A stretch of DNA of 64,000 bases, taken from assembly GCA_041665625.1 (NCBI GenBank), contig JBAYIK010000001.1, positions 68,587 to 132,586 of the forward strand. Reading direction: 5' to 3'. This DNA is from Minisyncoccota bacterium (GTDB lineage: Bacteria; Patescibacteriota; Minisyncoccia; Phycocordibacterales; XYD1-FULL-46-19). Both the position numbers and the translations under genes were made by a program. Shown in pieces: positions 27,330 to 60,767 of this stretch (the first letter of the stretch is position 1; each line of letters begins with the position of its first letter). The notes beneath the pieces were generated by a model, which had not been told where the DNA came from, did no database searches, and saw only the letters and a list, made by a program, of their open reading frames with translations.

Positions 27330-27335
27330 GTCGCC

Positions 27336-41304: not shown

Positions 41305-41450
41305 TAAACCAGTGAGTAATCGCTGGCATGGTGAATAAGCCCAGTCAAACGTAAAGAACCCAACATGTGGGGCCGTTTGACTGGCTGTATCGGGAAACCG
41401 ATGCAGAGGGCGCAAGCTCTCACTCACGTGTTGGGCTTTTTGGTTTCTAA
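41305..41450 (+). ncRNA. candidate structured RNA (unknown family) with GNRA hairpin and long-range stem ending in a T-tract
   Basis: GC-rich 145-nt island in an AT-rich intergenic region. ccagtcaaacg/cgtttgactgg 11-bp stem, atcgg-GAAA-ccgat tetraloop hairpin, cccaacatgtg pairing with cacgtgttggg followed by ctttttggttt. Confidence 0.3.
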
Positions 41451-44479: not shown

Positions 44480-44491
44480 AACGATTATTAA

Positions 44492-44788
44492 TTAGTTTTT
44501 TGCTAATGGCTGGACCTGGAGCCGGTGAAAAAGGGCAATCCGTTTCGGGTATTTTTTGAGGACTTGGCCGTCCTGATCTTTCTTCTCTACCATAGTTAGA
44601 CTGGAGAGAGACTTCTCGCCTTTTTTGACGACAAAGCCTAACTTAATCCATTCACGAAAGGTTCTAGCGTCTTGATAGGGGTCAAAGGACTCGGCAACTT
44701 CTTCTGAGAAGCGTTGAGCGATCTGTGCCTTCACGTCCTCATAGGTGCGAAGTGACCCACGATAATTTGTCTTAGTTAAAGTGACCAT
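44492..44788 (-). CDS. hypothetical small basic protein
   Basis: 98-aa ORF 12 nt upstream of 43802..44479 on the same strand. Confidence 0.45.
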   Translation of the reverse strand: MVTLTKTNYRGSLRTYEDVKAQIAQRFSEEVAESFDPYQDARTFREWIKLGFVVKKGEKSLSSLTMVEKKDQDGQVLKKYPKRIALFHRLQVQPLAKN

Positions 44789-45105: not shown

Positions 45106-46074
45106 TTGAGGAATAAGGACATTCTCCCAGTTTTTAGTAAACAAAATATGAAAAGTTATTATCGAATAATGCTTGGCCACAGGAGTATCTATGCCGAGGA
45201 TGCGTACAAGGGTAATTTTATCGCTGCCGGCTTTATTAAAGACAAAGACCTGGTTAACCATCTTTTTGACAGTCGTCGCGAGTTCAACGAGGAGTTTATT
45301 CCTATTTTTTTGAAACAAAATCCAGACAAGACAAAAGTTGGTGCTGGTCTTGCTTGTGGAATGCTTTGGACAATTGTCAAAGGTATACAAATTGGCGATA
45401 TTATTCTTTGTCCTGACGGTAAAGGAAATTATTATGTTGGTGAAGTTGTTGGCGGTTATGAGTATCGCAAGGGTGAAATTTTGCCCCATCGTCGGCCTGT
45501 TCACTGGTTTCCAAAAACAATCTCAAGAAACGAGATGAGCCAGTCATTAAAAAACTCAACTGGGGCGATTGGAACAGTCAGTGATATTAGTCGATATTCT
45601 TCTGAATTAGAATCCTTGCTTTCCGGGAATAACCCTCAGGCAATTATTACTGTAGATGACACTATTGAAGATCCCAGTGTTTTTGCTCTAGAAAAGCACC
45701 TAGAAGATTTCCTTGTCCATAATTGGAAGCATACTGAGTTAGGAAAACATTATGATATTTATGAGGAAGAAGGAGAAATTGTGGGACAGCAGTATCCAAG
45801 CGATACGGGGCCAATTGATATTCTGGCAATAAGTAAAGATAAAAAAGAAATATTGGTGGTAGAGCTTAAAAGAGGAAGAATAAGTGATGTCGTTGTGGGG
45901 CAAATTCAACGCTATATGGGTTATGTTAAAGAAGAGTTACTAGAAAAGAACCAGACAGTCCGTGGGGCCATAATTGCATTTGAGGATGATGTCAGGGTTC
46001 ATCGTGCCCTTTCTGTCGCAGCAAATATAGATTTTTATACGTATAAGGTTCATTTTGAATTAAGGAAAAAATAG
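45106..46074 (+). CDS. PUA(EVE)-like N-terminal domain fused to NucS/DUF91-like PD-(D/E)xK nuclease; putative Type IV modification-dependent restriction enzyme
   Basis: N-terminal LWTIVKGIQIGDIILCPDGKGNYYVGEVVGGYEY resembles the EVE/PUA beta-barrel pattern; C-terminal GPIDILAISKDKKEILVVELKRGRISDVVVGQIQRYMGYV matches the NucS-type PD-(D/E)xK core. Real start may be Met at 45148. Confidence 0.55.
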   Translation: MRNKDILPVFSKQNMKSYYRIMLGHRSIYAEDAYKGNFIAAGFIKDKDLVNHLFDSRREFNEEFIPIFLKQNPDKTKVGAGLACGMLWTIVKGIQIGDIILCPDGKGNYYVGEVVGGYEYRKGEILPHRRPVHWFPKTISRNEMSQSLKNSTGAIGTVSDISRYSSELESLLSGNNPQAIITVDDTIEDPSVFALEKHLEDFLVHNWKHTELGKHYDIYEEEGEIVGQQYPSDTGPIDILAISKDKKEILVVELKRGRISDVVVGQIQRYMGYVKEELLEKNQTVRGAIIAFEDDVRVHRALSVAANIDFYTYKVHFELRKK

Positions 46075-46078
46075 GTAT

Positions 46079-48640
46079 ATGACAAACTCTAAAGAAGCAT
46101 CTGCTCGAATTAAGATAAACAAACTGCTTGAAGCCTCTGGCTGGCGTTTTGGAGACGACAAAAAAGGAAAAGCTAATATACAACTTGAGCCAGGAGTTAA
46201 GTATTCCGAGCTTGGCGACGACTTTGAAAACGAAACTCACGGTTTTATTGATTTTCTTTTGCTTGACAAAGATGGCCGGGCGCTTGTGGTCCTAGAGGCA
46301 AAAAAGGAATCGATTGACCCTCTTTCTGCCAAAGAGCAAGCTAGAAACTACGCTCGTAATGTTGGAGCGCGGTTCGTCATTCTTTCTAATGGTAACATCC
46401 ATTATTTCTGGGATACTAAACATGGAAACCCTGATGCCATTTCTCGTTTTCCGACTCAAGACTCAATAACTCAATATGAAAAATACACTCCAAACCCTGA
46501 GGAATTAGCTAATACTTTGGTTGACGAGAACTACATTGCCTTAACTCAAATGCCAGGTTTAGTAAATGACCCTGCTTTCCTAAATGAGGCAACGAGAGTT
46601 GAGTTCTTAAGAAATAATAATTTAAAACAACTTCGACCTTACCAACTGAAGTCAATTAAGGCTCTTCAGGAGTCCGCCATGTCTGGTAATCAACGTTTTC
46701 TTTTTGAGATGGCTACGGGTACGGGAAAGACACTCATTTCGGCGGCTGTTATTAAATTATTCCTAAAATCTGGCAATGCCCGCAGAGTTCTTTTTCTTGT
46801 TGATCGATTAGAACTTGAGGGCCAAGCCTATAAAGCATTTAAAGCTTATCTCGGCCATGATTTTGCTACGGTTATTTATAAAGATAACCGCGATTCCTGG
46901 CAAAATGCCAGTGTCGTTGTTTCCACTATTCAAACTTTTCTCGCTGGCGATCGTTATAAAAAGGAATTCTCTCCTACCGATTTTGAGTTAGTTATCTCTG
47001 ACGAAGCCCATCGTTCTATTGGTGGTAATAGTCGAGCGGTCTTTGAATATTTTGTTGGTTATAAATTAGGTTTAACTGCCACACCTAAAAACTATATCAA
47101 GGGCGTTGACCCTGAGGGGGCGGATGTTCAGAGAGAATATGAGCGTCGATTACTTCTTGATACTTACAAAACTTTTGGCTGTGAGCCGGGCAATCCGACG
47201 TTTACCTATGATCTTCTTCAGGGTTCAAAAGACGGATTTCTTATTCAGCCGACCTTGGTTGATGCTCGAACAGAAATTACAACCGAGCTTTTGTCAGAAA
47301 AAGGCTATGCGGTTCATTCCACAACCGAGGAAGGAGAGAATGTCGATCAAGTCTTTAATGAGCGACACTATGAGCGAAAGTTCTTCAACGAAGAAACTAA
47401 TATTGCTATGTGTAAGGCCTTTATTGATAATGGCCTTTTTGACCCAGTAGCACAAAAACAGGGTGTTCAGCTTTTTGGTAAATCAATTGTCTTCTGTGTC
47501 TCACAAAAACACGCTTCGAGAGTGACCAATATTCTTAACAAATTGGCGTTTGAGAGATGGCCAGATCAATACGGTGAATCAGATTTTGCTATGCAAGTGA
47601 CCTCGCAGGTATCCAGTGCTCAACAGATGACAGTTAATTTCTCTAATAATCGTCTCGGTGGTCAAGTTAAGAAACCAGAAGGCTATGATTCTAGTAAGAC
47701 ACGCATTGCGGTAACTGTGGGAATGATGACGACAGGTTATGATTGCCAAGATTTGCTTAACATCGCTTTAATGCGCCCCGTTTTTAGTCCTGCCGACTTC
47801 GTCCAGATTAAGGGACGCGGGACCAGAAAATGGTTATTTGAGTATAAAGATTATGTTGACAAGGAAACAACTCAGATAGCTAAAGAAAGATTTAAATTCT
47901 TTGATTTCTTTGCCACTTGCGAATACTTCGAAGAAGGATTTCCTTATGACGAGAAGATAAAGCTCCCACAAATTAAAAAAGTTGTTGAATCTGAAACTTC
48001 GGGGGATAAAGCTTCGTCTCAGGGAGAATTTGTTGATGAAAAAGGTAACAAGATCTTTAAAGGACCAATTGATTTGGCTACCTCGGACGAGATTGCCTCT
48101 GTCTCCGAGACTGTTATCGGGGAAGAAGGTATGAGAATTGACCGTGAAGGCTTCAAAAGAGCCGTCGAAGAAGATATTCTCGGCAACGAGAAGCTTAAGA
48201 ATATGTGGGAGAACGGCGATACAGAGGAAGCGGAAGACTTTGCTAAAAAAGAGATTTTTGATAAGCCTAAATATTTCTTGAACCTCGATAAGATTCGTAG
48301 GATTTTTGGCGTTGATCGTCGGGTGACTGTTAAGGAATTTTTGCAGGTAGCCTTTGGTGATAAAGAAACATTTGAGATGAAGGACGATCTCTTGGAGTCC
48401 GAATGGCAGAAGTTCGTCGATATTTATGATGTTGATCAACCTCATTATCAACCCGCGAAGAATTTCTTTAAAGCCTATATCTCAGATGAAGAAGTCCGCG
48501 ACATTGTTAAGCGCAATCAACCTGCCGAATTCTATCATTGCCCGTCCTTCGACTTCGAAGATTATCAAAAACTAAACGGATATAGAGTGATCGTCCCACA
48601 ATATGTCCGTGACTATGCCTATCAATTAACAAACTTATAA
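46079..48640 (+). CDS. hsdR: Type I restriction enzyme R subunit (HsdR), compact
   Basis: N-terminal PD-(D/E)xK (DFLLLDKDGRALVVLEAKK), SF2 helicase motifs I (MATGTGKT) and II (VISDEAHRS), canonical KINKLLEASGW N-terminus. Confidence 0.85.
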   Translation: MTNSKEASARIKINKLLEASGWRFGDDKKGKANIQLEPGVKYSELGDDFENETHGFIDFLLLDKDGRALVVLEAKKESIDPLSAKEQARNYARNVGARFVILSNGNIHYFWDTKHGNPDAISRFPTQDSITQYEKYTPNPEELANTLVDENYIALTQMPGLVNDPAFLNEATRVEFLRNNNLKQLRPYQLKSIKALQESAMSGNQRFLFEMATGTGKTLISAAVIKLFLKSGNARRVLFLVDRLELEGQAYKAFKAYLGHDFATVIYKDNRDSWQNASVVVSTIQTFLAGDRYKKEFSPTDFELVISDEAHRSIGGNSRAVFEYFVGYKLGLTATPKNYIKGVDPEGADVQREYERRLLLDTYKTFGCEPGNPTFTYDLLQGSKDGFLIQPTLVDARTEITTELLSEKGYAVHSTTEEGENVDQVFNERHYERKFFNEETNIAMCKAFIDNGLFDPVAQKQGVQLFGKSIVFCVSQKHASRVTNILNKLAFERWPDQYGESDFAMQVTSQVSSAQQMTVNFSNNRLGGQVKKPEGYDSSKTRIAVTVGMMTTGYDCQDLLNIALMRPVFSPADFVQIKGRGTRKWLFEYKDYVDKETTQIAKERFKFFDFFATCEYFEEGFPYDEKIKLPQIKKVVESETSGDKASSQGEFVDEKGNKIFKGPIDLATSDEIASVSETVIGEEGMRIDREGFKRAVEEDILGNEKLKNMWENGDTEEAEDFAKKEIFDKPKYFLNLDKIRRIFGVDRRVTVKEFLQVAFGDKETFEMKDDLLESEWQKFVDIYDVDQPHYQPAKNFFKAYISDEEVRDIVKRNQPAEFYHCPSFDFEDYQKLNGYRVIVPQYVRDYAYQLTNL

Positions 48641-48643
48641 TAA

Positions 48644-51193
48644 ATGAACGCTGACACCAAAAGACATATCGATTCGGCTCGCCAAGTGTTAGTTGGGGTG
48701 GTTCCAAATCCGACTTCGCAGATAGACCAGATCACGAACGCGTTGATTTATAAGTTTATGGATGATATGGATCAGTCCGCGATTAAGGCTGGCGGTGAGC
48801 CTTCGTTCTTTGTTGGTAGTCTTGAGCGTTATGCTTGGACTCGCTTGATGGACGCTCGCATTGGCAATCAAGAGCGAATGAATCTTTACTCCGAAGCTCT
48901 ACTTAAATTCTCTGAAGCAAAACAACTGCCAGAACTTTTTAGAGGAATTTTTAAATCTGCCTTCTTACCTTATCGCTCGCCTGAAACTCTAGGTTTATTT
49001 CTTAAAGAGATTGATTATTTCGACTATTCTCATCCAGAAGAACTTGGTAATGCTTATGAATATCTGCTGTCGATAATGTCCTCTCAAGGTGACGCGGGGC
49101 AATTCCGTACCCCCCGTCACATTATCGACTTCATTGTTGACGTGGTTAACCCTACCAAAGACGATAAGGTTCTCGATCCTGCTTGTGGGACCGGTGGCTT
49201 CTTGGTGAGCTCCTATAAACATATTCTTGAACAGCATGATGGTAAAGATGACCCAGACAAGAAGGAAAAATCACTTACTCCCGACCAGCGCCGAGCTTTG
49301 GCAAATAACTTTGAAGGCTATGACATCGACCCGGGGATGGTCCGTATTGCTCAAGTTAATATGTATCTTCACCAATTTAAGAATCCAAAAATCTTTCAAT
49401 ATGATTCTCTCTCAAGTGATGAGCGTTGGAACGATAAGTTTAGCGTAATCTTGGCTAACCCACCCTTCATGTCTCCTAAAGGTGGGATTAAACCGCACAG
49501 TAAGTTTAGTATTCAATCGAGCCGAAGTGAGGTGTTGTTTGTTGATTATATAATGAATCATCTTCAGCCCAAAGGCCGAGCTGGTATTATTGTCCCAGAA
49601 GGTGTCATCTTTCAATCGGGGACTGCTTATAAACAACTCCGCAAGAATCTTGTCGAAGATGGTTTATTTGCTGTTGCCTCTTTGCCGTCAGGAGTTTTTA
49701 ATCCTTATGCCGGTGTCAAAACAAGTATCCTCTTTTTCGATAATGAGATCTCAAAGAGGACAAATGATATTTTGTTTATAAAAATTAAGAACGATGGCTT
49801 TGACTTGGGAGCCCAGAGACGACCAATTGATAAAAATGATTTGCCTGGGGCAATTAGTTTCATCAACCAATACAAAGAATATCTTGGTAATGATAAAGCT
49901 GCTCTGGCTAAACTATGGGCACATACAGGGGAAGACAAGTTCTTTTCTGTTGAGAAGGCAAAAATTTCTGAGGACGGTGACTATAATCTTTCTGGTGATC
50001 GTTACCGAGTCGCGACTGACTATTCTAACTCTAAGTGGCCGATGATAGGATTGGGAAAATTAGAAGAAGAAGGGAAAATTGAATTTTTAAGAGGTCAAGG
50101 ACTATCAAAGAGTGATTTAATTGAAGAAGGTAAAAGTAAGTGTATCCACTATGGCGAAATTTATACCTTATATGATCCCATTATTAAGAATGTCATAAGT
50201 AGGACTGATTTTGAAGGTAAGGTTACGTCATTAAAAGGTGATGTTCTTGTCCCCGCAACGACAACTGCTGATGCGATGGGGATTGCCGTGGCGAGATCAT
50301 TAAATGAGCAGGGGGTGATAATTGGGGGTGACATAAATATTATCAGAACGAGAAATAAGTTTATGTTGGCCGATTATCTAGCTTTATTAATTAGTAACCC
50401 TCCATTAAAAATAGAACTTTCTAGGTCTGCTAAGGGTGCAAACATACTCCATTTGTCAAACAGTGATTTAAAAAGGCTTCTGATTCCTCTCCCTCCGCTT
50501 GAAATCCAAGAGCAAATCGTCTCAGAGTTGGACGGCTACTCAAGTATAATTTCCGGCGCTAAACAAATCTCTCAAAACTGGAAACCTAAAATCGAGATTG
50601 ACCCTGAGTGGGAGGAGGTTAAGATAGAGGAAATCTCTGATTTAATTACAAAAGGCACAACGCCGACCACTAACGGCGGTAAATTCACGGAAACAGGAAT
50701 CAATTTTATAAAAGTTGAAAGTTTGTCTGAAACTGGTGAAATTGACCTTAAAAAAACATCTTTTATTTCTGGTGAGTGCCATGAGTCACTAAAGCGAAGT
50801 CAATTAAGAGAGAATGACATATTGTTTTCCATCGCTGGTACGAAAATGGGATTATCGGCTATCGTTTCTAAAAATATTTTACCTGCAAACACAAATCAAG
50901 CCTTGGCAATTATAAGATTAAAAAATAATACTGACCCGCAATATGTACTAAATTACTTGAGGTCTATTGCTTTAATATCGCTAATTGAAAACATTAAGGT
51001 CGGAGTTGCTCAGTTTAATCTCTCATTAAAACAAGTAGGTGAACTAGAAATACCTTTCCCTCCTCTCGAAACCCAGAAACAAATCGTAGAAAAAATCGAA
51101 GCTGAACGCATCTTGGTAGACTCTGCCAAAAAATTGATTGGGATTTATGAGAAAAAGACTAGGGAGGTTCTAGCTAAGCTTTGGGAGAAATAG
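48644..51193 (+). CDS. hsdMS: fused Type I methyltransferase-specificity subunit (HsdM-HsdS in one polypeptide)
   Basis: N-terminal half: N6-adenine MTase motifs DPACGTGGFL (I) and LANPPF (IV). C-terminal ~400 aa: two target-recognition domains each followed by a conserved LPPLEIQEQIV / FPPLETQKQIV helix. Confidence 0.8.
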   Translation: MNADTKRHIDSARQVLVGVVPNPTSQIDQITNALIYKFMDDMDQSAIKAGGEPSFFVGSLERYAWTRLMDARIGNQERMNLYSEALLKFSEAKQLPELFRGIFKSAFLPYRSPETLGLFLKEIDYFDYSHPEELGNAYEYLLSIMSSQGDAGQFRTPRHIIDFIVDVVNPTKDDKVLDPACGTGGFLVSSYKHILEQHDGKDDPDKKEKSLTPDQRRALANNFEGYDIDPGMVRIAQVNMYLHQFKNPKIFQYDSLSSDERWNDKFSVILANPPFMSPKGGIKPHSKFSIQSSRSEVLFVDYIMNHLQPKGRAGIIVPEGVIFQSGTAYKQLRKNLVEDGLFAVASLPSGVFNPYAGVKTSILFFDNEISKRTNDILFIKIKNDGFDLGAQRRPIDKNDLPGAISFINQYKEYLGNDKAALAKLWAHTGEDKFFSVEKAKISEDGDYNLSGDRYRVATDYSNSKWPMIGLGKLEEEGKIEFLRGQGLSKSDLIEEGKSKCIHYGEIYTLYDPIIKNVISRTDFEGKVTSLKGDVLVPATTTADAMGIAVARSLNEQGVIIGGDINIIRTRNKFMLADYLALLISNPPLKIELSRSAKGANILHLSNSDLKRLLIPLPPLEIQEQIVSELDGYSSIISGAKQISQNWKPKIEIDPEWEEVKIEEISDLITKGTTPTTNGGKFTETGINFIKVESLSETGEIDLKKTSFISGECHESLKRSQLRENDILFSIAGTKMGLSAIVSKNILPANTNQALAIIRLKNNTDPQYVLNYLRSIALISLIENIKVGVAQFNLSLKQVGELEIPFPPLETQKQIVEKIEAERILVDSAKKLIGIYEKKTREVLAKLWEK

Positions 51194-51196
51194 GCC

Positions 51197-51988
51197 ATGT
51201 TTAATGAAGTTGTTATGTATTTATTACAAATTCTGCAGAAATATCAAGCTCAAGATCTAACGGGTTATGCTGGTCAAATAATTCAACTCAAAAATATCCT
51301 TTATGATTGGGCAAATGGCTGCCTTCTCGAAATAAAAGATTCCGGCTCGAGGGCCAAAGGGACAGCGATTTCTTTGGCTTCAGATGTTGATTATTTAATT
51401 TCTCTTTCTAATGGGTGTAACCAAAGTAATGGGGGGTTAGAGTTTACTTTTAACCAACTCTTCCAACATTTGAAAGATCAGGGCTATCAAAACGTTAGGA
51501 AACAGAACGTTTCAACAAGAATTACCCTAGGCTCTCTTGAGATAGATATCACTCCAGCGACAAAACAGCTCGGTAATACTAGCGACCATAGTATTTGGAG
51601 ATCCAAGAACGGCACATGGCAAAAAACTAATATCCAAAGGCACATAACGGACGTTTCCCAGTCAGGAAGAATAAATGAGATAAAACTAATTAAAATTTGG
51701 AGAGAATTAAATAACTTGGACTTTCCTTCAATCTATCTCGAATACCTGATAATAAATAATGTTTTATTAAACAAGTCCACCGATGTCGCGAATCTTGGTA
51801 ACAATGTCTGGTATATCTTAACTGAATTGGCAAAAGACTACGGAAATCCGTTGTTTGCTAGGGTTGTTGATCCCGCAAATTCTAATAACATCCTTTCTGA
51901 ATTGTTAAGTCAAACAGAAAAAAATAAAATTATAAGCATGGCCAAGATATCCTCGAGCCAATCTAACTGGAACCAGATTCTCTGGTAG
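51197..51988 (+). CDS. Pol-beta superfamily nucleotidyltransferase, SMODS/CD-NTase-like
   Basis: GS-x11-DVD motif (IKDSGSRAKGTAISLASDVDYLISL) and downstream third acidic strand LEIDITPA; start 3 nt after the hsdMS stop. Confidence 0.55.
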   Translation: MFNEVVMYLLQILQKYQAQDLTGYAGQIIQLKNILYDWANGCLLEIKDSGSRAKGTAISLASDVDYLISLSNGCNQSNGGLEFTFNQLFQHLKDQGYQNVRKQNVSTRITLGSLEIDITPATKQLGNTSDHSIWRSKNGTWQKTNIQRHITDVSQSGRINEIKLIKIWRELNNLDFPSIYLEYLIINNVLLNKSTDVANLGNNVWYILTELAKDYGNPLFARVVDPANSNNILSELLSQTEKNKIISMAKISSSQSNWNQILW

Positions 51989-51997
51989 CCTTTTACT

Positions 51998-52687
51998 ATG
52001 AGTAAAAAAATTAACATTAGAAAATTATTTATGGCGCTTGATGAAGAAATGCGCCTAAAATTATCGAGTAAAATTGATGAGATTTATCATCCTACCTCAA
52101 AGGGGAGCGAGTCTGAGTTAAACTGGATCGGGCTATTAAGGACTTATTTACCAGATAGATATACTGTCGACAGTGGGTTTGTCGTTGATCATGAGGGTAA
52201 TATTAGTGATCAAATAGACGTTATTATATATGATCGTCATTTTACCCCCTTTATTTTTAGGGGTGAAAATATTGTTTACATTCCAGCAGAAGGTGTCTAT
52301 GCGATTTTTGAGGTTAAACCCCACTTTGGCAAAACCAATTATGATTATGCCGTTAAAAAATTAAACAGTGTCAAGACCTTAAAAAGAACCTCTGCTGAGT
52401 TTGCTCACATTATGGGTAAAGATAAAAAAGATCTTTTTGAAATTATTGGAGGAATCCTGACAGGAGAAAACAAAGGTAAAAAATATTTTAATGAGCTAAA
52501 TGTTAATTCCAAGCTATCAATAGCCCTTTCGCTAGATAGTGGAGTAAAGATAATTGACGGAGATCTAATGGAGGTCCAAAGTAAAGGACCCGTTCTGGCT
52601 TTTTTCTTGCTCAAGTTAATTAAAAAACTTCAGACACTTGGTACTGTCCCCGCCCTAGAGGTGGATAAATATCTAGGAGTTTGTTAA
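51998..52687 (+). CDS. hypothetical protein with PD-(D/E)xK-like core
   Basis: DQIDVIIYD ... AIFEVKPH spacing fits the D...(D/E)xK restriction-endonuclease fold; also an RTSAEFAH (Rx6H) segment. Confidence 0.4.
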   Translation: MSKKINIRKLFMALDEEMRLKLSSKIDEIYHPTSKGSESELNWIGLLRTYLPDRYTVDSGFVVDHEGNISDQIDVIIYDRHFTPFIFRGENIVYIPAEGVYAIFEVKPHFGKTNYDYAVKKLNSVKTLKRTSAEFAHIMGKDKKDLFEIIGGILTGENKGKKYFNELNVNSKLSIALSLDSGVKIIDGDLMEVQSKGPVLAFFLLKLIKKLQTLGTVPALEVDKYLGVC

Positions 52688-52693
52688 ATACTT

Positions 52694-53428
52694 ATGAACT
52701 CTCCACTTCCTTCATATCTATCGCTTCTGTGTGAAAATGAAGAAGAATTGAGGTATATTTCTGGCCTCCTTGATCAGTTTGATCTTGCTAAGACGTCTGG
52801 GTCATTTCATTTGGCTCTTTTTGCCTACCACCTACTCTTTATGACTTTTGTCTATCAGACGATCTTTAAAATAAAAATTTGGATGCCAGACAGGTTCAAC
52901 GACGCTCTCGTTCAATCGCCATCTGAAAAAAGAAAAAAATATCAGGAGTCTTCATCCGTTTGGGACCTCTCAGAATTTCGGGAAAGTTCAATCTTTGAGC
53001 TTCTTAACCTCCTTCAATCCTGTGAAGAAGAAGTCGTCAGATGTAAAAATATTATTAAGTATCGGAACCGTGGTTTTGGCCATGCGACGGGAGTACTTGT
53101 CTCAGAAGAAGAATTTGGAAAGAAAATAGAAGAATATGACCAGATGGCCTCAGAAATTCATCTATTAACTCATAACGAATTGGCCAAAATATTTGATGAA
53201 TATTTTAAGTCTCTGGATCCTACTCTAGAACAAACAAAAGACGACCTAGAGATTTATCTTATTGGCCCCAACAGGCTGAGTGACAAGGACCTGGAATCTT
53301 TGGCCGCGGAGTGCCTTATCGGAAGGACTGTTCCGCTAGAGAAAAGGAAACAGATTTTTGGGATACTTCAAGACAATTTTAATATGCACATCGAATTATT
53401 AGATTTTAAGCCCGCACAAGACAAGTGA
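52694..53428 (+). CDS. hypothetical protein with one hydrophobic helix and a HEPN-like YRNRGFGH motif
   Basis: FHLALFAYHLLFMTFVYQTIF hydrophobic segment; RNRGFGH resembles the HEPN Rx4-6H motif; no confident family. Confidence 0.35.
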   Translation: MNSPLPSYLSLLCENEEELRYISGLLDQFDLAKTSGSFHLALFAYHLLFMTFVYQTIFKIKIWMPDRFNDALVQSPSEKRKKYQESSSVWDLSEFRESSIFELLNLLQSCEEEVVRCKNIIKYRNRGFGHATGVLVSEEEFGKKIEEYDQMASEIHLLTHNELAKIFDEYFKSLDPTLEQTKDDLEIYLIGPNRLSDKDLESLAAECLIGRTVPLEKRKQIFGILQDNFNMHIELLDFKPAQDK

Positions 53429-54231
53429 CTAGCCCTCACGCATTAAAATTGTATGTTGATGGCTCCGCCTTTAGGAATCCTGGTCATGAAGGTGGCTTCT
53501 CGGTCTTTGCTGAATATCCCGATTCTTTCGGACTCTCGACATTAGAAGTGGCAAATGGGAGTTATGAGGAGACGACAAATAATCGGATGGAATTAAGAGC
53601 TTGTATTGAGGCCTTTAAATTTGCCAGAAAAGAAGTCGAGCGGCTTAAAATTCGCCATGTGATTGTGGTAACTGATTCTCATTATGTTTATAGCAATCAA
53701 TATCGAGCTATCTATTGGAAAAGAGATAACTGGGAGAATAGAGATGGTCGTCCTGTAGATAACCCAGACCTCTGGAAGGAATTTTTATCTCTTAAACAAA
53801 AGGTTAGAGCAAATCTTGAGGTTAACTGGCAGAAAGGAAAAACCACACAAATTCTTAATGCTGTTGATAAAGGAGCAAAACAGGCGGCAAAGGGGATAAA
53901 GACAACTGACTTTGGGTTTAGACGAGGCAAGATCTCAAGGACAAAGGTCAGAGGAGGAGGGATATTGATGTTTCCCGCAAACGGACAGAAAGAGATCATT
54001 AGAGTTTTTAAATATGAAAATAAAGCTATCAACGAGTGGAAGGTTTGTTTTGAATTATACTCTGAAGAGAAAGGCGGGTTTATTTCTAAACACTTTGCCT
54101 ATATACGCTCTCTTGAGAGCCTCCATCGACACGGGTATTATAAAGCTAGTTTTAATGACAACTCTCAGTACCCCCTAATTGAGATCCTTGAGGTGGTAAC
54201 TAGTCCAGAAAAGGGAATCCATCTATCCTGA
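53425..54231 (+). CDS. RNase HI domain fused to an uncharacterised ~120-aa C-terminal domain
   Basis: LYVDGSAFRNPGHEGGFSVF...TTNNRMELRACIEAF...IVVTDSHYV...WKRDNWENRDG are RNase H1 motifs; GTG start overlaps the upstream TGA (GTGA). Confidence 0.7.
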   Translation: MTSPHALKLYVDGSAFRNPGHEGGFSVFAEYPDSFGLSTLEVANGSYEETTNNRMELRACIEAFKFARKEVERLKIRHVIVVTDSHYVYSNQYRAIYWKRDNWENRDGRPVDNPDLWKEFLSLKQKVRANLEVNWQKGKTTQILNAVDKGAKQAAKGIKTTDFGFRRGKISRTKVRGGGILMFPANGQKEIIRVFKYENKAINEWKVCFELYSEEKGGFISKHFAYIRSLESLHRHGYYKASFNDNSQYPLIEILEVVTSPEKGIHLS

Positions 54232-54306: not shown

Positions 54307-55143
54307 ATGTGGCAAAAACTCTCAAAACTGATTAAATTATTGCTTAAGACCATCGCGGTTTTGTTGCTTATTGGCCTTTGGTCTACGGCTTCATACTTTG
54401 CCATAAATTACTTTGCTAAGCTGACAGAAGAGAAAAATGACTGTAATATCTCAGGGATTAGCTTGCACGGGGAAGTGGTCACCTATAACAGCGCTGATTC
54501 CTATAACGATAACGGGGACCTTGTCCGTGATCAGACCTCGGCCGATGAAGTTCTCTATATTGTTAGGCAGGCTCAATCTAATGACGATATAAAAGCTATC
54601 GTTGTCGATATTGATTCTGGTGGAGGATACCCAGAAGCGGGGGAAGAGATGATGAATGCCTTCAAGCAGTCTAAGAAGCCCGTAATAGCCTTTATTCGGG
54701 GCCAGGGGCTCTCTGCCGCTTACCTTGCTGCTACTGGTGCTCAGACAATATTCGCTTCTAAATTCTCCGATATAGGAAGTATTGGAATCACGGGTTCGTA
54801 TCTTCAAGAGACAGAGAAGAACAAGAAGGAAGGCTTAACCTATATTGACCTGAGTTCTGGTAAGTATAAGGATACGGGTAATACGGGGCGCGCCTTAACT
54901 CTGGATGAGAAGAAACTATTCATGAGGGATATTAATATCATGTTTAGCTATTTTGTTGAGATAGTGGCTAAGAACAGGAAGATAGACATCACGAAGGTGC
55001 GGGAGATTGCCGATGGTTCTAGCATGCTTGGAGACGCCGCTCTTAAGGCTGGTTTGATTGATCGAATTGGTCTATATCCTGACGTTAGGAAGTATCTATC
55101 TGAGAAGATCGGGACTGAGGCAAAGATTTGTTGGGAGAACTAG
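54307..55143 (+). CDS. membrane-anchored S49-family peptidase (SppA-like)
   Basis: N-terminal TM anchor; S49/ClpP-like core VVDIDSGGGYPEAGEEMMNAFKQSKKPVIAFIRGQGLSAAYLAATGA. Confidence 0.65.
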   Translation: MWQKLSKLIKLLLKTIAVLLLIGLWSTASYFAINYFAKLTEEKNDCNISGISLHGEVVTYNSADSYNDNGDLVRDQTSADEVLYIVRQAQSNDDIKAIVVDIDSGGGYPEAGEEMMNAFKQSKKPVIAFIRGQGLSAAYLAATGAQTIFASKFSDIGSIGITGSYLQETEKNKKEGLTYIDLSSGKYKDTGNTGRALTLDEKKLFMRDINIMFSYFVEIVAKNRKIDITKVREIADGSSMLGDAALKAGLIDRIGLYPDVRKYLSEKIGTEAKICWEN

Positions 55144-55352
55144 CTCCCAATTTCTTCCCCGCTATTGCTGACGACAAAGACAGCTTTTTTGGGATAAAAC
55201 TGTTATCAAGATAGGTTCTAGTGGTGGGAGGATTCCTCTGAGCTAGCTCTGCTGACATTAGGGGCCTTCTTTCGGATAAATCCGCAATTTGGAGGGAAAC
55301 AGAAGCTAAGGAACCCTTTAAAATAACCTTTTATCGTGATATATTATAAAAA

Positions 55353-56150
55353 ATGCCCATCAATAATGTCGATTTTAATTCTCTGGAGGTTAAGGAGTAC
55401 TTGAAAAGGTTGGATCAGGTTATTTATGATATTTTTAGCATTGTTGAGACTCATATTGAGACGAGAACAACTAATATCAATAAAAAATTAGGCTCTTACT
55501 ATCGGGATAGACTAAAAAGATTAGAAGAACTCTTAAATGAGAATTCTTGGGGGAAGAAAATAGTTAAGAGCAATAAGAAGCCTCGGACAGATCTGGTTGT
55601 CTTATTGGAGGAAAGAGACGAGTTAATTCTAAGAAAAACCAAGAAAGACTTATCTCTGATCTTGTTAGAAATTCAGGTATTAAGAAATTTGCCTCCAAAC
55701 GAAACAGAGACCGGTGTAGCAGACGAAGATTTAAAAAACTATCTCGAGGGTTTAATTTATGCCCAAAATAATAATTTAGGTATTGGTATTGCTAGCCAAT
55801 ACATAATAAAAAAGGCTGATGGGGAATACCTTTATAACAATAAGCCTATTGTTTTTCATAGTAAAAAAACTGACTACTTCAAATTATTCGATAGTCTTTA
55901 TGATATCACTAATGGAGGGGGAGAAGTCACTTATAGCGAACTTTATCGAGAATATCGCAAACATGGAGGGAAAAAGCCCAAAAAGGGGGAGACTGCGGAT
56001 GAGATAAAACACAAAATCTCAAACTTGGTAACAAGTTTCTTTTCCTTCGTCCGGGTTGACGGGAGAAAAATCTCTAGAGTCAACCTTGGGGGGCGGAATT
56101 TTATTGAGGCAATAACAATTTCAGGTCTTCGTTTTAATAATAAAAGGTAG
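55353..56150 (+). CDS. hypothetical basic protein
   Basis: 265-aa ORF, Lys-rich, no motif. Confidence 0.45.
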   Translation: MPINNVDFNSLEVKEYLKRLDQVIYDIFSIVETHIETRTTNINKKLGSYYRDRLKRLEELLNENSWGKKIVKSNKKPRTDLVVLLEERDELILRKTKKDLSLILLEIQVLRNLPPNETETGVADEDLKNYLEGLIYAQNNNLGIGIASQYIIKKADGEYLYNNKPIVFHSKKTDYFKLFDSLYDITNGGGEVTYSELYREYRKHGGKKPKKGETADEIKHKISNLVTSFFSFVRVDGRKISRVNLGGRNFIEAITISGLRFNNKR

Positions 56151-56287
56151 TTCTTATTTTTGACGACAAGGTTCTTTCTAATTCGACCTATAAGGGTCGT
56201 TTTTTTGTTGCAAACAAAGGGTAAAACGGGGAGAGCAAGAAATCGCAAGAAATAGTGAGAAGCTTTTGAGTATGGAAAAATAACACC

Positions 56288-58159
56288 ATGACAAACAATT
56301 TATCCCTCAACAACAAACGTGAAATGGCTCTTGCCTATGCCGGCTTAGGTTGGAAAATCTTCCCTTGTCACAACACAGGTGGAAATAGGTGCTCTTGTGG
56401 CAACACCAATTGTGACAAACAAGGGAAACATCCAAGAACGCCAAACGGCTTTAAGGATGCGACGAGCGATCCTTTAATAATAACTGATTGGTGGACTAAG
56501 TGGCCAGAGGCCAATATTGCAGTAGCGACGGGCAAGGTATCGGGAATTTCTGTCGTCGATATCGATTGTGAAAAAGACGACACCGGACAAGTTACAAAAA
56601 TGGGGCTTAATGAGGGGCTACCTACAACCCTAATGGCCAGAAGTGGAGGACTTGGATGGCATTATTTTTATCAATATCAAGAGGGTCTAGCAAGTAAAAT
56701 TGGATTTAGAGAATTAGTCGATTTAAAATCCGATGGTGGATATATCATCTTGCCTCCGTCAGACCATAAGTCTGGTAATAAGTATGAATGGCACAGTGAT
56801 TTAGGCAAAAATCTAATAGCACCTTTCCCCGAAGAAATTTTGTTAGAACTTTCTCAATCTAAAGGAACCAGCCAACAATTACCAATTGTTACTACAAATA
56901 ATACCTCGACTGTTCCCTTTGAGATACCAGTGGGCACTCGAAACGGAGCCTTTGCTTCAATTGTCGGGAAACTTGTTAGCCACCTCCCTGTGACTGACTG
57001 GGAATCTTGGGCTAAACCCTTGATCTTTATGGCTAACTCTGGGAACAAAGAACCTTTGCCCGAGACAGAATTACAGAGTGTCTACTCGTCAATTACCCAA
57101 AGGGAGTTGGCAAAAAGAACCTCTTCTCCGACCAAGGGCAAAATTGAAGTACTTAGCGCTAAAGAGTTAGAAGATACAATCTTCCCTGAAGCAAACTGGG
57201 CAATCTATAGTTTTTTCGAGACAGGGACGGTAAACATGATCTCTGCGGAGCCCAATAACTACAAGAGTTGGGTGATGCTAGATGCCGCGGTTTCTCTCGC
57301 TTCCGGACGGCCGCTATTTGGCCAATTTAAGACTGAAAAACAGTCTGTCCTTATCGTTAATGAAGAGGATTATCACTCTCAGCTAAGGACAAGAATGATG
57401 ATGATTGATAAGAATTGGAGTCAGTTACCTATATACTTCGCTATCCAAAATGGGGTAAAACTAATTGATAGCGACATTGAGAAGATTATCAGTCTGGCCA
57501 AAGAAAAGGGGGTTGGTTTCATTATCTTTGATTCACTGCGAAGTCTTCACTCGGCCGAAGAAAACAGCTCGACAGAGATGCAAGCGGTCCTTGATCAGTT
57601 AAAAAAGGTCACTAAAGCTGGTTTTACCGTCCTATTTAGCCACCATAATCGTAAAAAGGGGATTTCTTCTTCTGATAATGGTAATGAATCACGCGGAAGC
57701 TCGGGGATAAACGCGGCCGTTCATGGCCACATAACCTGCGAACCGAAAGAGGAGGGAGGACAAACCTTTTTAATCATCTCTCAGCCAAAACTAAAGGGTG
57801 GTCCCAAGATGGATCCGTTTCGCGTGAGAATTGATCTAAGTAGCGATAAACCCTTCGTTTATGACGGAGTTTACAGCAAGGGGCTGACCAAAAACGAACT
57901 CGAGGAAGAAATAATCAAATTATTAGAATTCCACGAGGGGAAGGGACTAGATGTTGGCCACTTTTTAGCCGCAAATATTGCCGGGGATAGGAGGCTGAGA
58001 GAAACTCTCCGCACAATGTCAGGAGATCAGACGATTACCGCAATCCTCTGGAAAGATGTCCAAAAATCAGGGCTACCTGTGGCTAGTGAAGGGGTTAATC
58101 CCAATGAGAAGTTCTATTTTTTGCCGGATAGCTTAATAAATGATGATATTCCACCTTAA
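56288..58159 (+). CDS. bifunctional primase-polymerase (Prim-Pol) N-terminal domain fused to RecA-like/AAA_25-type domain with degenerate Walker A
   Basis: PrimPol N-terminal signature: GWKIFPC...GKHPRTPNGFKDATSD...ANIAVATG...SGISVVDID. C-terminal RecA-fold layout: FIIFDSLRSLHS Walker-B-like; AEPNNYKS in the Walker A position. Confidence 0.75.
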   Translation: MTNNLSLNNKREMALAYAGLGWKIFPCHNTGGNRCSCGNTNCDKQGKHPRTPNGFKDATSDPLIITDWWTKWPEANIAVATGKVSGISVVDIDCEKDDTGQVTKMGLNEGLPTTLMARSGGLGWHYFYQYQEGLASKIGFRELVDLKSDGGYIILPPSDHKSGNKYEWHSDLGKNLIAPFPEEILLELSQSKGTSQQLPIVTTNNTSTVPFEIPVGTRNGAFASIVGKLVSHLPVTDWESWAKPLIFMANSGNKEPLPETELQSVYSSITQRELAKRTSSPTKGKIEVLSAKELEDTIFPEANWAIYSFFETGTVNMISAEPNNYKSWVMLDAAVSLASGRPLFGQFKTEKQSVLIVNEEDYHSQLRTRMMMIDKNWSQLPIYFAIQNGVKLIDSDIEKIISLAKEKGVGFIIFDSLRSLHSAEENSSTEMQAVLDQLKKVTKAGFTVLFSHHNRKKGISSSDNGNESRGSSGINAAVHGHITCEPKEEGGQTFLIISQPKLKGGPKMDPFRVRIDLSSDKPFVYDGVYSKGLTKNELEEEIIKLLEFHEGKGLDVGHFLAANIAGDRRLRETLRTMSGDQTITAILWKDVQKSGLPVASEGVNPNEKFYFLPDSLINDDIPP

Positions 58160-58244
58160 ACCACGCCTGGCACCTAGCATAACCTAGAGGTTGTTGCCAG
58201 GTGCCAAGTAACTTATTAGGTAAATTAACTAACAAATAAAAAAT

Positions 58245-58838
58245 ATGAATGATTATAGTTTAGAGGTCAAGGAAGAAGAGCTTCTTAAAGAAAAAAGAAC
58301 TCTATGGGATACTCTTGTTAAAAGAGGAGAAGAAATTGGTGTTGAAGATGGGGCAAGAGAGATTGTTGTGGCTCTTAATGCCAATAACCTCCCAACGGCC
58401 TGGTCCTGTGGTGGACATGTTGATACCTCAATCGAGCAAACAGATGATTATTGGCAGAGAAACCCCTGGGTCTATTTTGAGTTATGTGAGCACCATACTT
58501 ACCCCTCAGAAGATTCCGAAGAGGGTCGGGCCTCGGCTGCTCTTTTTGAAGTCAGGAAGGGGATGACAACAGAGGTTCCTGAGCTTATTGAAGAATTTTA
58601 CAAAACAAGAACTCCACAAAATGGAGTTCGGTTAATGTTTTCTAAGGTGGGCGGATTGGATTACTTATATCGACTTGACGCGGTAAGTGATGGGCCAGAC
58701 ATTATAACGGAAGATTGTGACCTTTCTTGTCTGAATCAGAAACTTTTTTACCAACAAGAAGAGATGAGGGCTTTTGCAAAGTTCTTAGAAGATCGCTACT
58801 TATCCCCCTCTCGACCAATTAGTCATGAAAGGGGTTAA
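58245..58838 (+). CDS. acidic hypothetical protein
   Basis: 197-aa ORF, no motif. Confidence 0.45.
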   Translation: MNDYSLEVKEEELLKEKRTLWDTLVKRGEEIGVEDGAREIVVALNANNLPTAWSCGGHVDTSIEQTDDYWQRNPWVYFELCEHHTYPSEDSEEGRASAALFEVRKGMTTEVPELIEEFYKTRTPQNGVRLMFSKVGGLDYLYRLDAVSDGPDIITEDCDLSCLNQKLFYQQEEMRAFAKFLEDRYLSPSRPISHERG

Positions 58839-59072
58839 ATTAGTGGTTAAATTAACTTGATGTTAAAATGAAGAAACTACACGAAGACGATGACAAAATA
58901 GTTAATATTGTGTCCAGCGAAGGGCAACGAGGGTCTTTGTGTAGTAACAAGATGTCTTCTCGTTGCCCTTCTTTGGATTATGAAGATATTGGCGCATCTG
59001 GCTCAGTTAGCGACGCTTACGATATTCTTTTTAATAAAACGGTCGAAGTTATAAATAATAGGAAAATATTAT

Positions 59073-60767
59073 ATGAATCTTATCGCAATTTACGGAAGAG
59101 TATCCACATCGAGACAGGAAAATGAGGATACTGTTGAGAATCAACTACACTCAATAAAGGAATTTGCCGACAAAAAATATCTAACGGATGGTGGTTATCA
59201 AATCATTCGCGAATATACTGATGAAGGGTGGAGTGGTGATTCATTGATTCGCCCAGGGCTTGATAACTTGCGCCAAGATGCCAGGAAGAAAATCTGGGAC
59301 ACAGTTATTATCTATGACCCTGATCGCCTAGCTCGACGCTATTCATACCAAGAACTAGTTATTGATGAACTCAAGGAGGCAGGCGTTGAAGTCTTGTTTG
59401 TTACGATAAAATTACCAGAGAATGATGATGACAAGATTCTTTATGGTGTGCGAGGCTTATTTTCTCAATATGAGAGGGCAAAAATCGCCGAAAGGTTTAG
59501 ACAAGGGAAACTTCGCAAAGTAAGAGAAGGCCATATTTTGGTTAGCGAAGCTCTTTATGGCTATCGTTATGTTCCCAAGGTTGAGGCCCCTGGCTCCGCG
59601 AGAATCCATGGCTACTATGAGATTGATCCCGAAGAGTCAGAGGTGGTAATAAAGATTTTTGATTGGGTGGTAAAGGATAAACTAACCCTTAGAACTATCG
59701 TTAAAAAATTACAAGAAGAAGGAATCAAGCCTCGCAAAAGTATTCGTGGAGTCTGGGCAACAAGCACACTAACAACAATGTTAAGGCACGAGGGCTATAT
59801 TGGTAAGGCTCATTGGGGTAGCTCTTATGCGGTGATACCAGAAAATCCAACCAAAAAAGAAAAATATCGACGTATCAAAAAGAGTAGCCGTCGGGCAAAA
59901 CTAAAAAGTGACTGGTTTATAATAGCCATTCCCCCGATTATCTCCGAAGATACTTTCTTTAGAGCTCGTCATCAATTAGAGATTAACTATAAGATGCACC
60001 CACGCAACAGAAAGAACGACTATCTCTTAGCAGGGATGATTAGGTGTACTTGTGGGAGGTCAAGAGCAGGAGAAGGACCTAAACAAGGAACACATCTATA
60101 CTATCGTTGCAGTGATCGAGTCAGTTCCTACCCTTTACCCCGAACCTGCCACAAAAATGGCTTAAACGCGAGGATTGCAGATCAATTAGTTTGGGACAAA
60201 TTAACAGGTTTAATGGCGTCTCGATCACTAATTACCAAAGAAATTGAGCGCTGGAGTAAAGAAGAGGATGGGCCTAGGGATGTAGTCGATATTAAAGCTG
60301 TCCAGAAGGAATTAAGTAAGTTAAAGAAGGAAGAGGACCGTTACAACCGAGCTTATGCTGAAGGAATCTTTTCAATGGAGAAGTTAAAAGAGTATCTTGA
60401 GCCAGTTAGGGCAAAGATGGCTAAGCTTGAGTCTTCTCTAAGAGAAACAGGAAGAAAGCCACAAGGGAGAAATGAGCTTTTATCAGTGTTATCAGAGAGG
60501 GTTAATGTCGCTTTAGAGGCACCTCTGGTTTTGGCGGAGAATTTGGATTTTGCCACAAAACGTGAGATTATAACTAGGACCATTGATCAAGTTGTGGGCG
60601 ATCAGGAGGAAATAAAGGTTACTGGCCACATTCCACTACAAACTAATGTCGAAGATTATTCAACTAACAATAAAGGGGTATTAAGCCTTATTCAAACAAA
60701 TGTCGAGTTCTGCACTAACGATTGGAATTGTCGGGCTACCAAACGTCGGGAAATCGACGCTTTTTAA
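59073..60767 (+). CDS. large serine recombinase (integrase)
   Basis: Resolvase catalytic domain with nucleophile Ser (IAIYGRVSTSRQ), recombinase domain, Cys4 zinc ribbon (CTCGRS...YYRCSDR), coiled coil; 564 aa. Confidence 0.9.
   Translation: MNLIAIYGRVSTSRQENEDTVENQLHSIKEFADKKYLTDGGYQIIREYTDEGWSGDSLIRPGLDNLRQDARKKIWDTVIIYDPDRLARRYSYQELVIDELKEAGVEVLFVTIKLPENDDDKILYGVRGLFSQYERAKIAERFRQGKLRKVREGHILVSEALYGYRYVPKVEAPGSARIHGYYEIDPEESEVVIKIFDWVVKDKLTLRTIVKKLQEEGIKPRKSIRGVWATSTLTTMLRHEGYIGKAHWGSSYAVIPENPTKKEKYRRIKKSSRRAKLKSDWFIIAIPPIISEDTFFRARHQLEINYKMHPRNRKNDYLLAGMIRCTCGRSRAGEGPKQGTHLYYRCSDRVSSYPLPRTCHKNGLNARIADQLVWDKLTGLMASRSLITKEIERWSKEEDGPRDVVDIKAVQKELSKLKKEEDRYNRAYAEGIFSMEKLKEYLEPVRAKMAKLESSLRETGRKPQGRNELLSVLSERVNVALEAPLVLAENLDFATKREIITRTIDQVVGDQEEIKVTGHIPLQTNVEDYSTNNKGVLSLIQTNVEFCTNDWNCRATKRREIDAF

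Follow-up and report, generated by a model that had tools for sequence, protein, structure and literature searches.

Characterised NucC enzymes come from the type III CBASS systems of E. coli MS115-1 and P. aeruginosa. In the E. coli enzyme (Ec NucC), roles have been assigned to an IDx30EAK active site, to a cAAA pocket (R53, Y81 and T226/V227) and to a gate loop (H136 and Y141) (bioRxiv 10.1101/694703). A type I CBASS consists by definition of one cyclase and one effector (PMC10419184). At least 16 clades of HEPN proteins are linked to restriction-modification (R-M) systems, and a PrrC-like model has been proposed for them (PMC3710099; PMC3632139). Variable 'rlo' (R-linked ORF) genes are carried by the Type I hsd loci of Campylobacter jejuni (cited in PMC3632139).

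We analysed a stretch of DNA of 64,000 nucleotides (the window), in which four genes, here called genes 1 to 4, lie downstream of a fused hsdM-hsdS gene (hsdMS). The earlier note took the four for a single undescribed system centred on a nucleotidyltransferase. Our analysis indicates that the locus is not one system but very probably a composite defence operon, carried by an integrative element in a CPR (Paceibacterota) bacterium. The features of the locus are listed in Table 1.

Table 1. Genes of the operon and of the neighbouring integrative element (positions refer to the window)
Feature	Position	Strand	Description	Basis
ArdC-N-like gene	44492-44788	-	other side of operon	
PDC-S02-like nuclease	45106-46074	+	first gene of operon; NucS-like PD-(D/E)xK nuclease	
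hsdR	46079-48640	+	Type I restriction subunit; N-terminal nuclease and ResIII helicase	
hsdMS (hsdM-hsdS fusion)	48644-51193	+	N6-adenine methyltransferase and two target-recognition domains; 849 aa	
Gene 1	51197-51988	+	CBASS CD-NTase; 263 aa	PADLOC/Pfam/PDB matches
Gene 2	51998-52687	+	NucC; 229 aa	PADLOC/PDB matches
Gene 3	52694-53428	+	all-alpha HEPN-like protein, predicted RNase; terminal gene of hsdR-hsdMS lineage; 244 aa	
Gene 4	53425-54231	+	RNase HI-OB fusion; independent accessory gene; 268 aa	
S49 peptidase	54307-55143	+		Pfam
Unknown protein	55353-56150	+		
PrimPol-AAA_25 replicase	56288-58159	+		Pfam
197-aa ORF	between PrimPol-AAA_25 replicase and large serine recombinase	+		
Large serine recombinase	59073-60767	+		Pfam

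The open reading frames and co-directional arrangement of genes 1 to 4 were confirmed as the earlier note had described them, including the spacing of 3, 9, 6 and -4 nt along hsdMS, gene 1, gene 2, gene 3 and gene 4. The TAG stop codon of hsdMS is separated from the ATG of gene 1 by the three nucleotides gcc, and the stop codon of gene 3 overlaps the start of gene 4 in the four nucleotides GTGA. Upstream, the spacing is equally tight, with 4 nt between the PDC-S02-like gene and hsdR and 3 nt between hsdR and hsdMS. The seven closely packed genes of positions 45106-54231 thus apparently form one operon, co-transcription being judged from spacing only. A scan for sigma-70 promoters and terminators performed no better than on shuffled sequence and was not used. 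The 4-nt overlap suggests translational coupling of genes 3 and 4 in the window's genome, and a functional link between the two, local to this genome, is possible.

The first protein of the operon matches PDC-S02, a defence candidate in PADLOC (1e-156), over residues 15-321 and Pfam NucS_C (2.8e-8), and its true start may be Met15; a counterpart is absent from the sister operons examined. HsdR is identified by Pfam ResIII (8.7e-38) and HSDR_N_2 and by PADLOC REase_I (7e-54), and HsdMS by Pfam N6_Mtase (1e-51) and Methylase_S (two stretches) and by PADLOC MTase_I (3.7e-99) and Specificity_I. On the other flank, the large serine recombinase is followed by the housekeeping genes ychF and def, and positions 54307-60767 probably form the backbone of an integrative element together with its end. 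A related island (L201) likewise ends in a serine recombinase, beside fmt/def.

On sequence evidence, genes 1 and 2 make up a type I CBASS of two genes, a cyclase and the canonical effector NucC. Gene 1 matches the PADLOC Cyclase model PDLC00803 over its full length (1.4e-78) and Pfam SMODS (7.6e-7), in agreement with the SMODS-like nucleotidyltransferase proposed in the earlier note. It also matches E. coli CdnC (6p80, 2.5e-6) and BcCdnD (9sa4) in the PDB, and the NCBIfam CBASS_cyclase models below their cut-off only. Its Pol-beta-type motif, composed of G50-S51, D63-x-D65 and D117, is invariant among 28 homologues. The enzyme is most similar to those of clades C and D, which make cyclic trinucleotides, and its homologues fill more than 1000 clusters across phyla.

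Gene 2 had been read as a PD-(D/E)xK nuclease. This part of the claim holds, but its identity as NucC (PADLOC Effector 'Endonuclease (NucC)', 3.7e-75; PDB 6p7o, 2.2e-38) was missed, and with it the canonical CBASS partner that the earlier note could not find. Residues I73-D74 and E105-V106-K107 align with I72-D73 and E104-A105-K106 of the Ec NucC active site. The cAAA-pocket residues R53, Y81 and T226/V227 correspond to R54, F82 (a change from Tyr to Phe) and T216-V217. In the gate loop, H137 aligns with H136, and the position of Y141 falls in an alignment gap.

The pairing itself recurs. NucC lies directly 3' of a gene 1 relative in about 30 of 80 genomes (in the window the gap is 9 nt), and a 1TM effector takes its place in 34 loci of this cyclase family. 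In the closest relative on a long contig, island L201, the CBASS pair stands behind a different restriction system. An independent case is found in a Saccharibacteria locus (L083), where a CD-NTase and a TM effector come straight after hsdR-hsdMS. None of the ancillary genes Cap2/Cap3, HORMA/TRIP13 or QueC/TGT/OGG lies beside the pair in the window. A type III CBASS was rejected since HORMA and TRIP13 (Pch2) are absent from the operon.

Gene 4 is an independent accessory gene, unrelated to the CBASS pair, whose relatives trail different restriction or defence clusters or reside on mobile elements. The earlier note's reading of the protein as an RNase HI with an additional C-terminal domain is borne out: the RNase HI domain spans residues 6-155, and in the alignment of residues 6-160 to E. 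coli RNase HI the DEDD catalytic residues are intact. The C-terminal domain (approximately 100 aa) has no match in Pfam when searched alone. It has an OB fold of the kind seen in ssDNA-binding domains and resembles PriB, RecO and RPA. The neighbourhood sample is small (approximately 9 loci). Homologues follow GmrSD/Type III R-M/Mrr genes (L118), R.HinP1I-Vsr (L120), an SLFN-helicase (L008), an XhoI R-M system with integrases (L011), a TIR-SEFIR helicase (L012) and a resolvase-primase, and none of them accompanies a CBASS. A 252-aa gene preceding the L008 homologue was considered as a gene 3 relative and discarded (tblastn negative; no Pfam or PADLOC match). An IMG/VR scan returned a single full-length relative of gene 4, the many other phage matches being plain RNase H genes, and a phage origin is thus unsupported.

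Whether gene 4 acts in defence is less clear. It may instead be the resident RNase HI of a reduced-genome lineage, or an accessory of the element's own replication that removes primers or R-loops, and merely flank a hotspot for restriction cassettes. We regard this as a possibility to be reckoned with, if not the one we favour. The order from gene 4 to the S49 peptidase is common to the window and L118, with wholly different clusters upstream, and in the window the PrimPol replicase is encoded 2 kb beyond gene 4. Another homologue is immediately preceded by a resolvase-RepB primase, the OB fold is of a type found in replication and repair proteins, and PADLOC (v2) contains no matching model. 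However, the full-length family, with about 110 clusters in 5.8 billion proteins, is unlike a housekeeping gene in its small size and patchy distribution, and members on non-CPR contigs are flanked by integrases, R-M and TIR genes. In addition, each of the four closest relatives stands last, in the same direction, after a restriction or defence cluster, and in two of them the reading frames overlap or abut. The same tail position is filled in sister operons by defence-type genes, namely SIR2, Schlafen/PDC-S19, RmrA-like, DUF3800 or DUF4238 genes. We retain gene 4 as an open lead, an uncharacterised gene associated with defence islands.

Gene 3 belongs to the Type I R-M operon itself and co-varies with hsdR-hsdMS. 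Its family comprises 337 representative clusters. We found 26 non-redundant loci, 21 of which are informative, having enough upstream sequence. In all 21, gene 3 is the last gene of an hsdR-hsdMS operon and hsdMS lies upstream on the same strand, whether the space between the two is empty or filled with cargo. HsdR in these loci is 71-84% identical to the window copy in most cases (51-84% overall). A gene 4 relative occurs in only one of the 26, upstream and on the opposite strand.

The HEPN-like motif pointed out in the earlier note, R124-N125-x3-G129-H130 (Rx5H), is invariant among 62 close homologues, and R124 and H130 are the sole invariant columns in 59 distant relatives of about 20% identity (consensus RNxxAHANG). 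One distant relative carries a fused TIR domain; sequence did not bear out a second putative fusion of this kind (P0413). The structural model is all-helical, and the single hydrophobic helix of residues 38-63, noted earlier, is predicted with high pLDDT inside that fold and may be either buried or membrane-spanning. By analogy, gene 3 is predicted to be a HEPN-like RNase and a PrrC-like partner of the R-M system, which agrees with the prrC-type insertion and the defence context suggested in the earlier note. Since gene 3 has no NTPase domain, which regulates PrrC, the guardian mechanism is only an analogy.

An alternative is that the R-M enzyme has in gene 3 a structural or regulatory subunit without catalytic activity, and not a toxic RNase; such a subunit might act in assembly, as a sensor of anti-restriction or in restriction alleviation. 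Its strict linkage to hsdR-hsdMS would fit such a role. Moreover, Pfam, PADLOC, NCBIfam and PHROGs give no match, including to any curated HEPN family, and Foldseek finds no match in the PDB. We consider this alternative unlikely and keep the predicted RNase as our reading of gene 3. When the gene 3 family was run as a profile against the PDB, the only matches were to interferon-gamma, and we judged them spurious. Comparison by hhalign with the Abi_C and Ymh cargo proteins revealed no relationship, and no viral relative was found in the IMG/VR scan, which leaves a phage origin of gene 3 unsupported.

The interval between hsdMS and gene 3 behaves as a swappable slot. It is empty (11-61 bp) in five loci (L018, L024, L031, L032 and L037), and gene 3 is thus independent of any cargo. 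In the other loci, about 12 unrelated cargos take up the slot, among them Shedu SduA (7.8e-64), an AbiJ-like HEPN protein and many unknowns; the cargo in the window is the CBASS pair. A second slot between hsdR and hsdMS contains a SoFic, PDC-S22 or Schlafen-like gene.

The notion that genes 1 to 4 are one new cyclic-nucleotide signalling system, with genes 3 and 4 as extra effectors or regulators of the CD-NTase, is most improbable: the tight spacing and the GTGA overlap speak for it, and HEPN and nuclease effectors occur in other cyclic-nucleotide systems, but the neighbourhood census already largely refutes it, with gene 3 or 4 near none of the gene 1 relatives (0/80 genomes, within 8 kb) nor in L201, only the effector conserved as a gene family around gene 1 relatives, no CD-NTase or NucC in any of the 26 non-redundant gene 3 loci, gene 3 kept where the slot is empty, and no recognisable cyclic-nucleotide sensor (SAVED, CARF or STING) in genes 3 and 4. 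The earlier note's single four-gene system and the co-localisation expected of it have thus given way to a known CBASS and two separate genes.

We propose the following working model of the composite operon. The scaffold is a Type I R-M operon lineage consisting of hsdR, fused hsdM-S and gene 3 as its conserved last gene. On the pattern of PrrC and the HEPN clades linked to R-M systems, gene 3 would be a latent RNase restrained by the R-M complex; if restriction were inhibited or overwhelmed, its release might provide an abortive-infection backstop. Recombination between the conserved flanks probably accounts for the exchange of cargo in the slot. Upon infection, gene 1 would synthesise a cyclic trinucleotide, most likely 3'3'3'-cAAA. 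Binding of cAAA to the conserved pocket of NucC trimers would then lead to hexamers and to non-specific cleavage of double-stranded DNA. Gene 4, in the variable tail position, is predicted to cut the RNA of RNA:DNA hybrids beside ssDNA, as in R-loops and primers, and may serve either defence or the element's own replication.

A bolder version of the model, which we put forward tentatively and regard as rather doubtful, makes hsdR-hsdMS-slot-HEPN a dedicated cargo platform of CPR bacteria. Gene 3 would be an obligate R-M guardian anchoring a recombinational slot for whole systems (CBASS, Shedu, SoFic and Abi), and gene 4 a new stand-alone defence gene destroying the RNA:DNA hybrids of invader replication.

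The assignment of genes 1 and 2 removes a false lead, as the apparently novel nucleotidyltransferase module is an ordinary CBASS-NucC cassette. It also provides a clear natural case, from ultra-small CPR bacteria, of a Type I R-M operon that encloses an entire CBASS and leaves it no room for a separate promoter, which implies co-expressed layered immunity. Gene 3 represents a previously unmodelled HEPN-like family that is tied to one R-M lineage and flanks a swappable defence slot, and their position makes the many unannotated cargo genes of that slot candidates for a role in defence. The RNase HI-OB fusion is found time and again behind restriction clusters, and PADLOC v2 does not include it. 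Gene 3 as a PrrC-like R-M guardian and gene 4 as a defence-island gene are the leads that follow from this work.

Compared with known systems, the CBASS pair shares with type I CBASS/NucC the GS/DxD/D site of the CD-NTase and an adjacent NucC with an IDx30E-x-K site and an R/aromatic/T pocket. It differs from the characterised NucC systems in having no HORMA and TRIP13 regulators, in the short cyclase (263 aa), in its CPR host and in its position 3 nt past hsdMS, inside an R-M operon. Like bacterial RNase HI (rnhA), gene 4 has the DEDD residues in the aligned domain; unlike E. coli RNase HI, it has an extra OB domain and no evident equivalent of His124, and unlike rnhA it belongs to a rare family linked to mobile elements and restriction clusters.

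Gene 3 resembles EcoprrI-PrrC and the R-M-linked HEPN clades of Anantharaman et al. (2013) in lying co-directionally within a Type I R-M operon to which it is strictly linked (PMC3710099; PMC12707154). It lacks the ABC/NTPase domain of PrrC, as seen from the absence of an NTPase match and from the 244-aa all-alpha model. Unlike EcoprrI-PrrC and these clades, it matches no curated HEPN model and lies at the 3' end of the operon, behind a variable cargo slot. As in the rlo loci of C. jejuni and in defence islands, unrelated accessory or defence genes are placed between conserved hsd genes. Unlike the rlo loci, however, the slot of the window's lineage belongs to CPR/Patescibacteria and is bounded by a conserved HEPN-like gene, and the cargo of this operon lineage includes whole named systems (CBASS, Shedu and SoFic).

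Rather than one four-gene system, the locus is a composite of a Type I restriction-modification (R-M) operon with its HEPN-like partner (gene 3), a CBASS-NucC pair (genes 1 and 2) in the cargo slot that separates hsdMS from gene 3, and an RNase HI-OB gene (gene 4) that follows behind. The four ORFs lie on the plus strand exactly as the earlier note described, and reading of the junction sequence verified its gaps of 3, 9, 6 and -4 nt after hsdMS, the fused hsdM-S gene. The three upstream genes are equally packed (4 nt between the nuclease gene and hsdR, 3 nt between hsdR and hsdMS), and judging by this spacing alone, it is plausible that the packed genes form one transcription unit. A scan for consensus promoters and terminators showed no difference from shuffled sequence.

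Positions in the window of the operon and surrounding features
Feature	Position	Strand	Remark
GC-rich stretch	10922-16000		
tRNA-Ala (GGC)	10922-10995	minus	
tRNA-Ala (TGC)	14056-14131	plus	
GC-rich stretch	26000-29000		
LOOT sRNA	41301-41421		full-length
Element signs	43802-44788	minus	
PDC-S02/NucS-like nuclease	45106-46074		5' of hsdR
hsdR	46079-48640		between NucS-like nuclease and hsdMS
hsdM-S, fused	48644-51193		directly 5' of gene 1
Gene 1	51197-51988	plus	CD-NTase
Gene 2	51998-52687	plus	NucC
Gene 3	52694-53428	plus	HEPN-like
Gene 4	53425-54231	plus	RNase HI-OB
Element signs	54307-60767		
Serine recombinase	59073-60767		large, 564 aa

Genes 1 and 2 form a known system, a standard type I CBASS-NucC cassette. 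Along its entire length, gene 1 matches a PADLOC CBASS cyclase model (1.4e-78); Pfam SMODS is matched as well, and among solved structures E. coli CdnC and B. cereus CdnD come closest. Residues G50-S51, D63-x-D65 and D117 are invariant among its homologs. Gene 2 matches the PADLOC CBASS effector 'Endonuclease (NucC)' (3.7e-75) and solved NucC structures (6p7o, 2.2e-38). Its residues D74, E105 and K107 align with D73, E104 and K106 of the NucC active site, and R54, F82 and T216 align with R53, Y81 and T226, which bind cAAA (residue roles from Lau et al., bioRxiv 10.1101/694703). The His of the NucC gate loop is kept, and the Tyr141 position falls into an alignment gap. Type I CBASS is defined as one cyclase plus one effector (PMC10419184), and neither HORMA/TRIP13 nor Cap2/Cap3 genes are present according to Pfam and PADLOC.

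Scanning GTDB species representatives for gene 1 yielded 80 loci from many phyla. NucC is located immediately 3' of the cyclase in approximately 30, and 34 others have a small protein encoded 5' of the cyclase that PADLOC identifies as the '1TM' CBASS effector (5.9e-80); no further conserved gene family was found around the cyclase in the 80 loci. A relative of gene 3 or gene 4 within 8 kb was found in none of them (0/80). With a known CBASS pair and no co-localisation, the single nucleotidyltransferase-centred defence system proposed in the earlier note is refuted on the note's own terms; its fold-level guesses for the four genes were good. In L201, the locus with the closest long-contig relative of gene 1 (75% identity), CD-NTase and NucC follow a different restriction system without genes 3 and 4. 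An operon of the same type as that of the window, but more distant, is present in locus L083 (Saccharibacteria, CPR2; 3012-9262). Here, the genes immediately after hsdR and hsdMS (54% and 45% identity) encode a CD-NTase (40%) and a TM effector of CBASS (PADLOC C3a59/1TM), and gene 3 was not found in the operon. Since both L083 and the window carry CBASS, this R-M operon type has captured CBASS independently at least twice.

Gene 3 is part of the R-M operon and matches nothing in Pfam, PADLOC, NCBIfam or PHROGs. Its 62 close homologs come from CPR phyla wherever a phylum is named. We sampled 26 non-redundant loci by context look-ups and a metagenome scan, and gene 3 is downstream of and co-directional with hsdMS homologs in every one of the 21 loci whose upstream sequence is long enough (L025, with 1 kb only, is outside this count). 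hsdR is also present wherever the contig reaches far enough and is mostly 71-84% (overall 51-84%) identical to the window copy. The HsdM-HsdS fusion, a single 849-aa polypeptide with two target-recognition domains in the window, is unusual among Type I systems. It is kept across the sister operons (the other hsdR-hsdMS-gene 3 loci) except in L006, which encodes a 661-aa protein and, separately, an HsdS fragment of 173 aa.

Five loci (L018, L024, L031, L032 and L037) have only 11-61 bp between hsdMS and gene 3; elsewhere, this interval is filled by about a dozen unrelated kinds of cargo: AbiJ-like HEPN (L003), Ymh HEPN (L004), Shedu SduA (L119, 7.8e-64), DUF2806, a DUF3800-like protein, small proteins that appear hydrophobic by eye and several proteins without any match. 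CBASS occupies this slot in the window only, among the gene 3 loci sampled. Slot proteins without a Pfam or PADLOC match have 471 aa (L016), 366 aa (L017), 180 aa (L023/L033), 183 aa (L029) and 158 aa (L030), and those of L015, L021 and L022 are TM-like; by position, the unmatched proteins (L015-L031 range) are candidates for new defence genes. Between hsdR and hsdMS lies another insertion point, occupied by SoFic (3.8e-98), PDC-S22/KilA-N or a Schlafen-like protein. The protein encoded 5' of hsdR in the window matches the PADLOC defence candidate PDC-S02 almost perfectly (1e-156) and carries a NucS-like PD-(D/E)xK domain at its C-terminus. Since a PDC-S02-like gene was not found in any sister operon, the region upstream of hsdR represents a third position with differing cargo.

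Residues 6-160 of gene 4 form a typical RNase HI domain, and D12, E56, D84 and D148 align with D10, E48, D70 and D134 of E. coli RNase HI. Full-length members make up a small family of about 110 clusters, which was essentially not found on viral contigs. Its preceding neighbors differ from locus to locus: GmrSD/Type III R-M/Mrr in L118 (73% identity; an S49 peptidase lies 3' of the gene, likewise in the window), R.HinP1I-Vsr with overlapping frames in L120, an SLFN-type helicase in L008, XhoI R-M in L011 (between two integrases), a TIR-SEFIR helicase in L012 and a resolvase-primase on a conjugative-element-like contig. Directly after gene 3, sister operons carry either a convergent recombinase or a co-directional SIR2, Schlafen/PDC-S19, RmrA-like, DUF3800 or DUF4238 gene. 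As an accessory gene, gene 4 therefore stands on its own, in association with restriction clusters and mobile elements. In L016 (2713-3477, minus strand), an RNase HI-OB homolog of 34% identity lies divergent from hsdR, approximately 100 bp upstream of it, a second, differently arranged co-occurrence with this R-M operon lineage. Gene 4 may act in cell defence, may serve replication of the element, with a PrimPol replicase located 2 kb downstream, or may be mere backbone flanking an insertion hotspot.

The defence operon is situated on a probable integrative element of a Paceibacterota MAG. An ArdC-like gene marks one side of this element and a serine recombinase the other, and ychF and def directly follow the recombinase. 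Element-type genes around the operon comprise a 98-aa ArdC-N-like gene, the S49 peptidase, a PrimPol-AAA_25 replicase and the recombinase. The related L201 island likewise ends with a serine recombinase, adjoining fmt/def, which suggests a common insertion region for the two islands. Unrelated to the operon, the LOOT sRNA (Rfam, 87.6 bits; gathering score 46.4) is just 5' of a 170-aa ORF and a 517-aa secreted-looking protein. Two stretches are GC-rich (0.50-0.56 versus about 0.40 elsewhere), and Rfam revealed no rRNA in either.

Two leads emerge, namely the RNase HI-OB family and the as yet unmodelled HEPN-like family together with the cargo slot. For the latter, HMMER run in full over 1.84 billion representatives gave 337 relatives of gene 3. 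In an alignment of 59 relatives (about 20% identity), R124 and H130 are the sole invariant residues and N125 is nearly invariant (consensus RNxxAHANG), a pattern that corresponds to the HEPN Rx4-6H signature. The AlphaFold model is all-helical and confident (pLDDT 92.7), and the distant relative P0427 has a C-terminal TIR domain (PDB 7uxr, 1e-23). Although Foldseek gave nothing significant and sequence profiles did not connect gene 3 to any curated HEPN family, we call it HEPN-like on the basis of signature, model and TIR fusion, an assignment with good but not complete support. Other distant proteins combine the gene 3-like domain with a possible, unconfirmed TIR domain (P0413), a 550-aa helical extension (P0323) or a C-terminal zinc-ribbon cluster (P0408).

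At least 16 HEPN clades are linked to R-M systems, and a PrrC-like model has been proposed for them, in which the R-M enzyme silences an RNase that is released when restriction is blocked (PMC3710099; PMC3632139; PMC12707154). Since gene 3 lacks the NTPase domain of PrrC, it is not a member of the PrrC family. It does fit the R-M-linked HEPN class and, by analogy, would be an RNase that is silenced by the R-M enzyme and freed upon restriction block.
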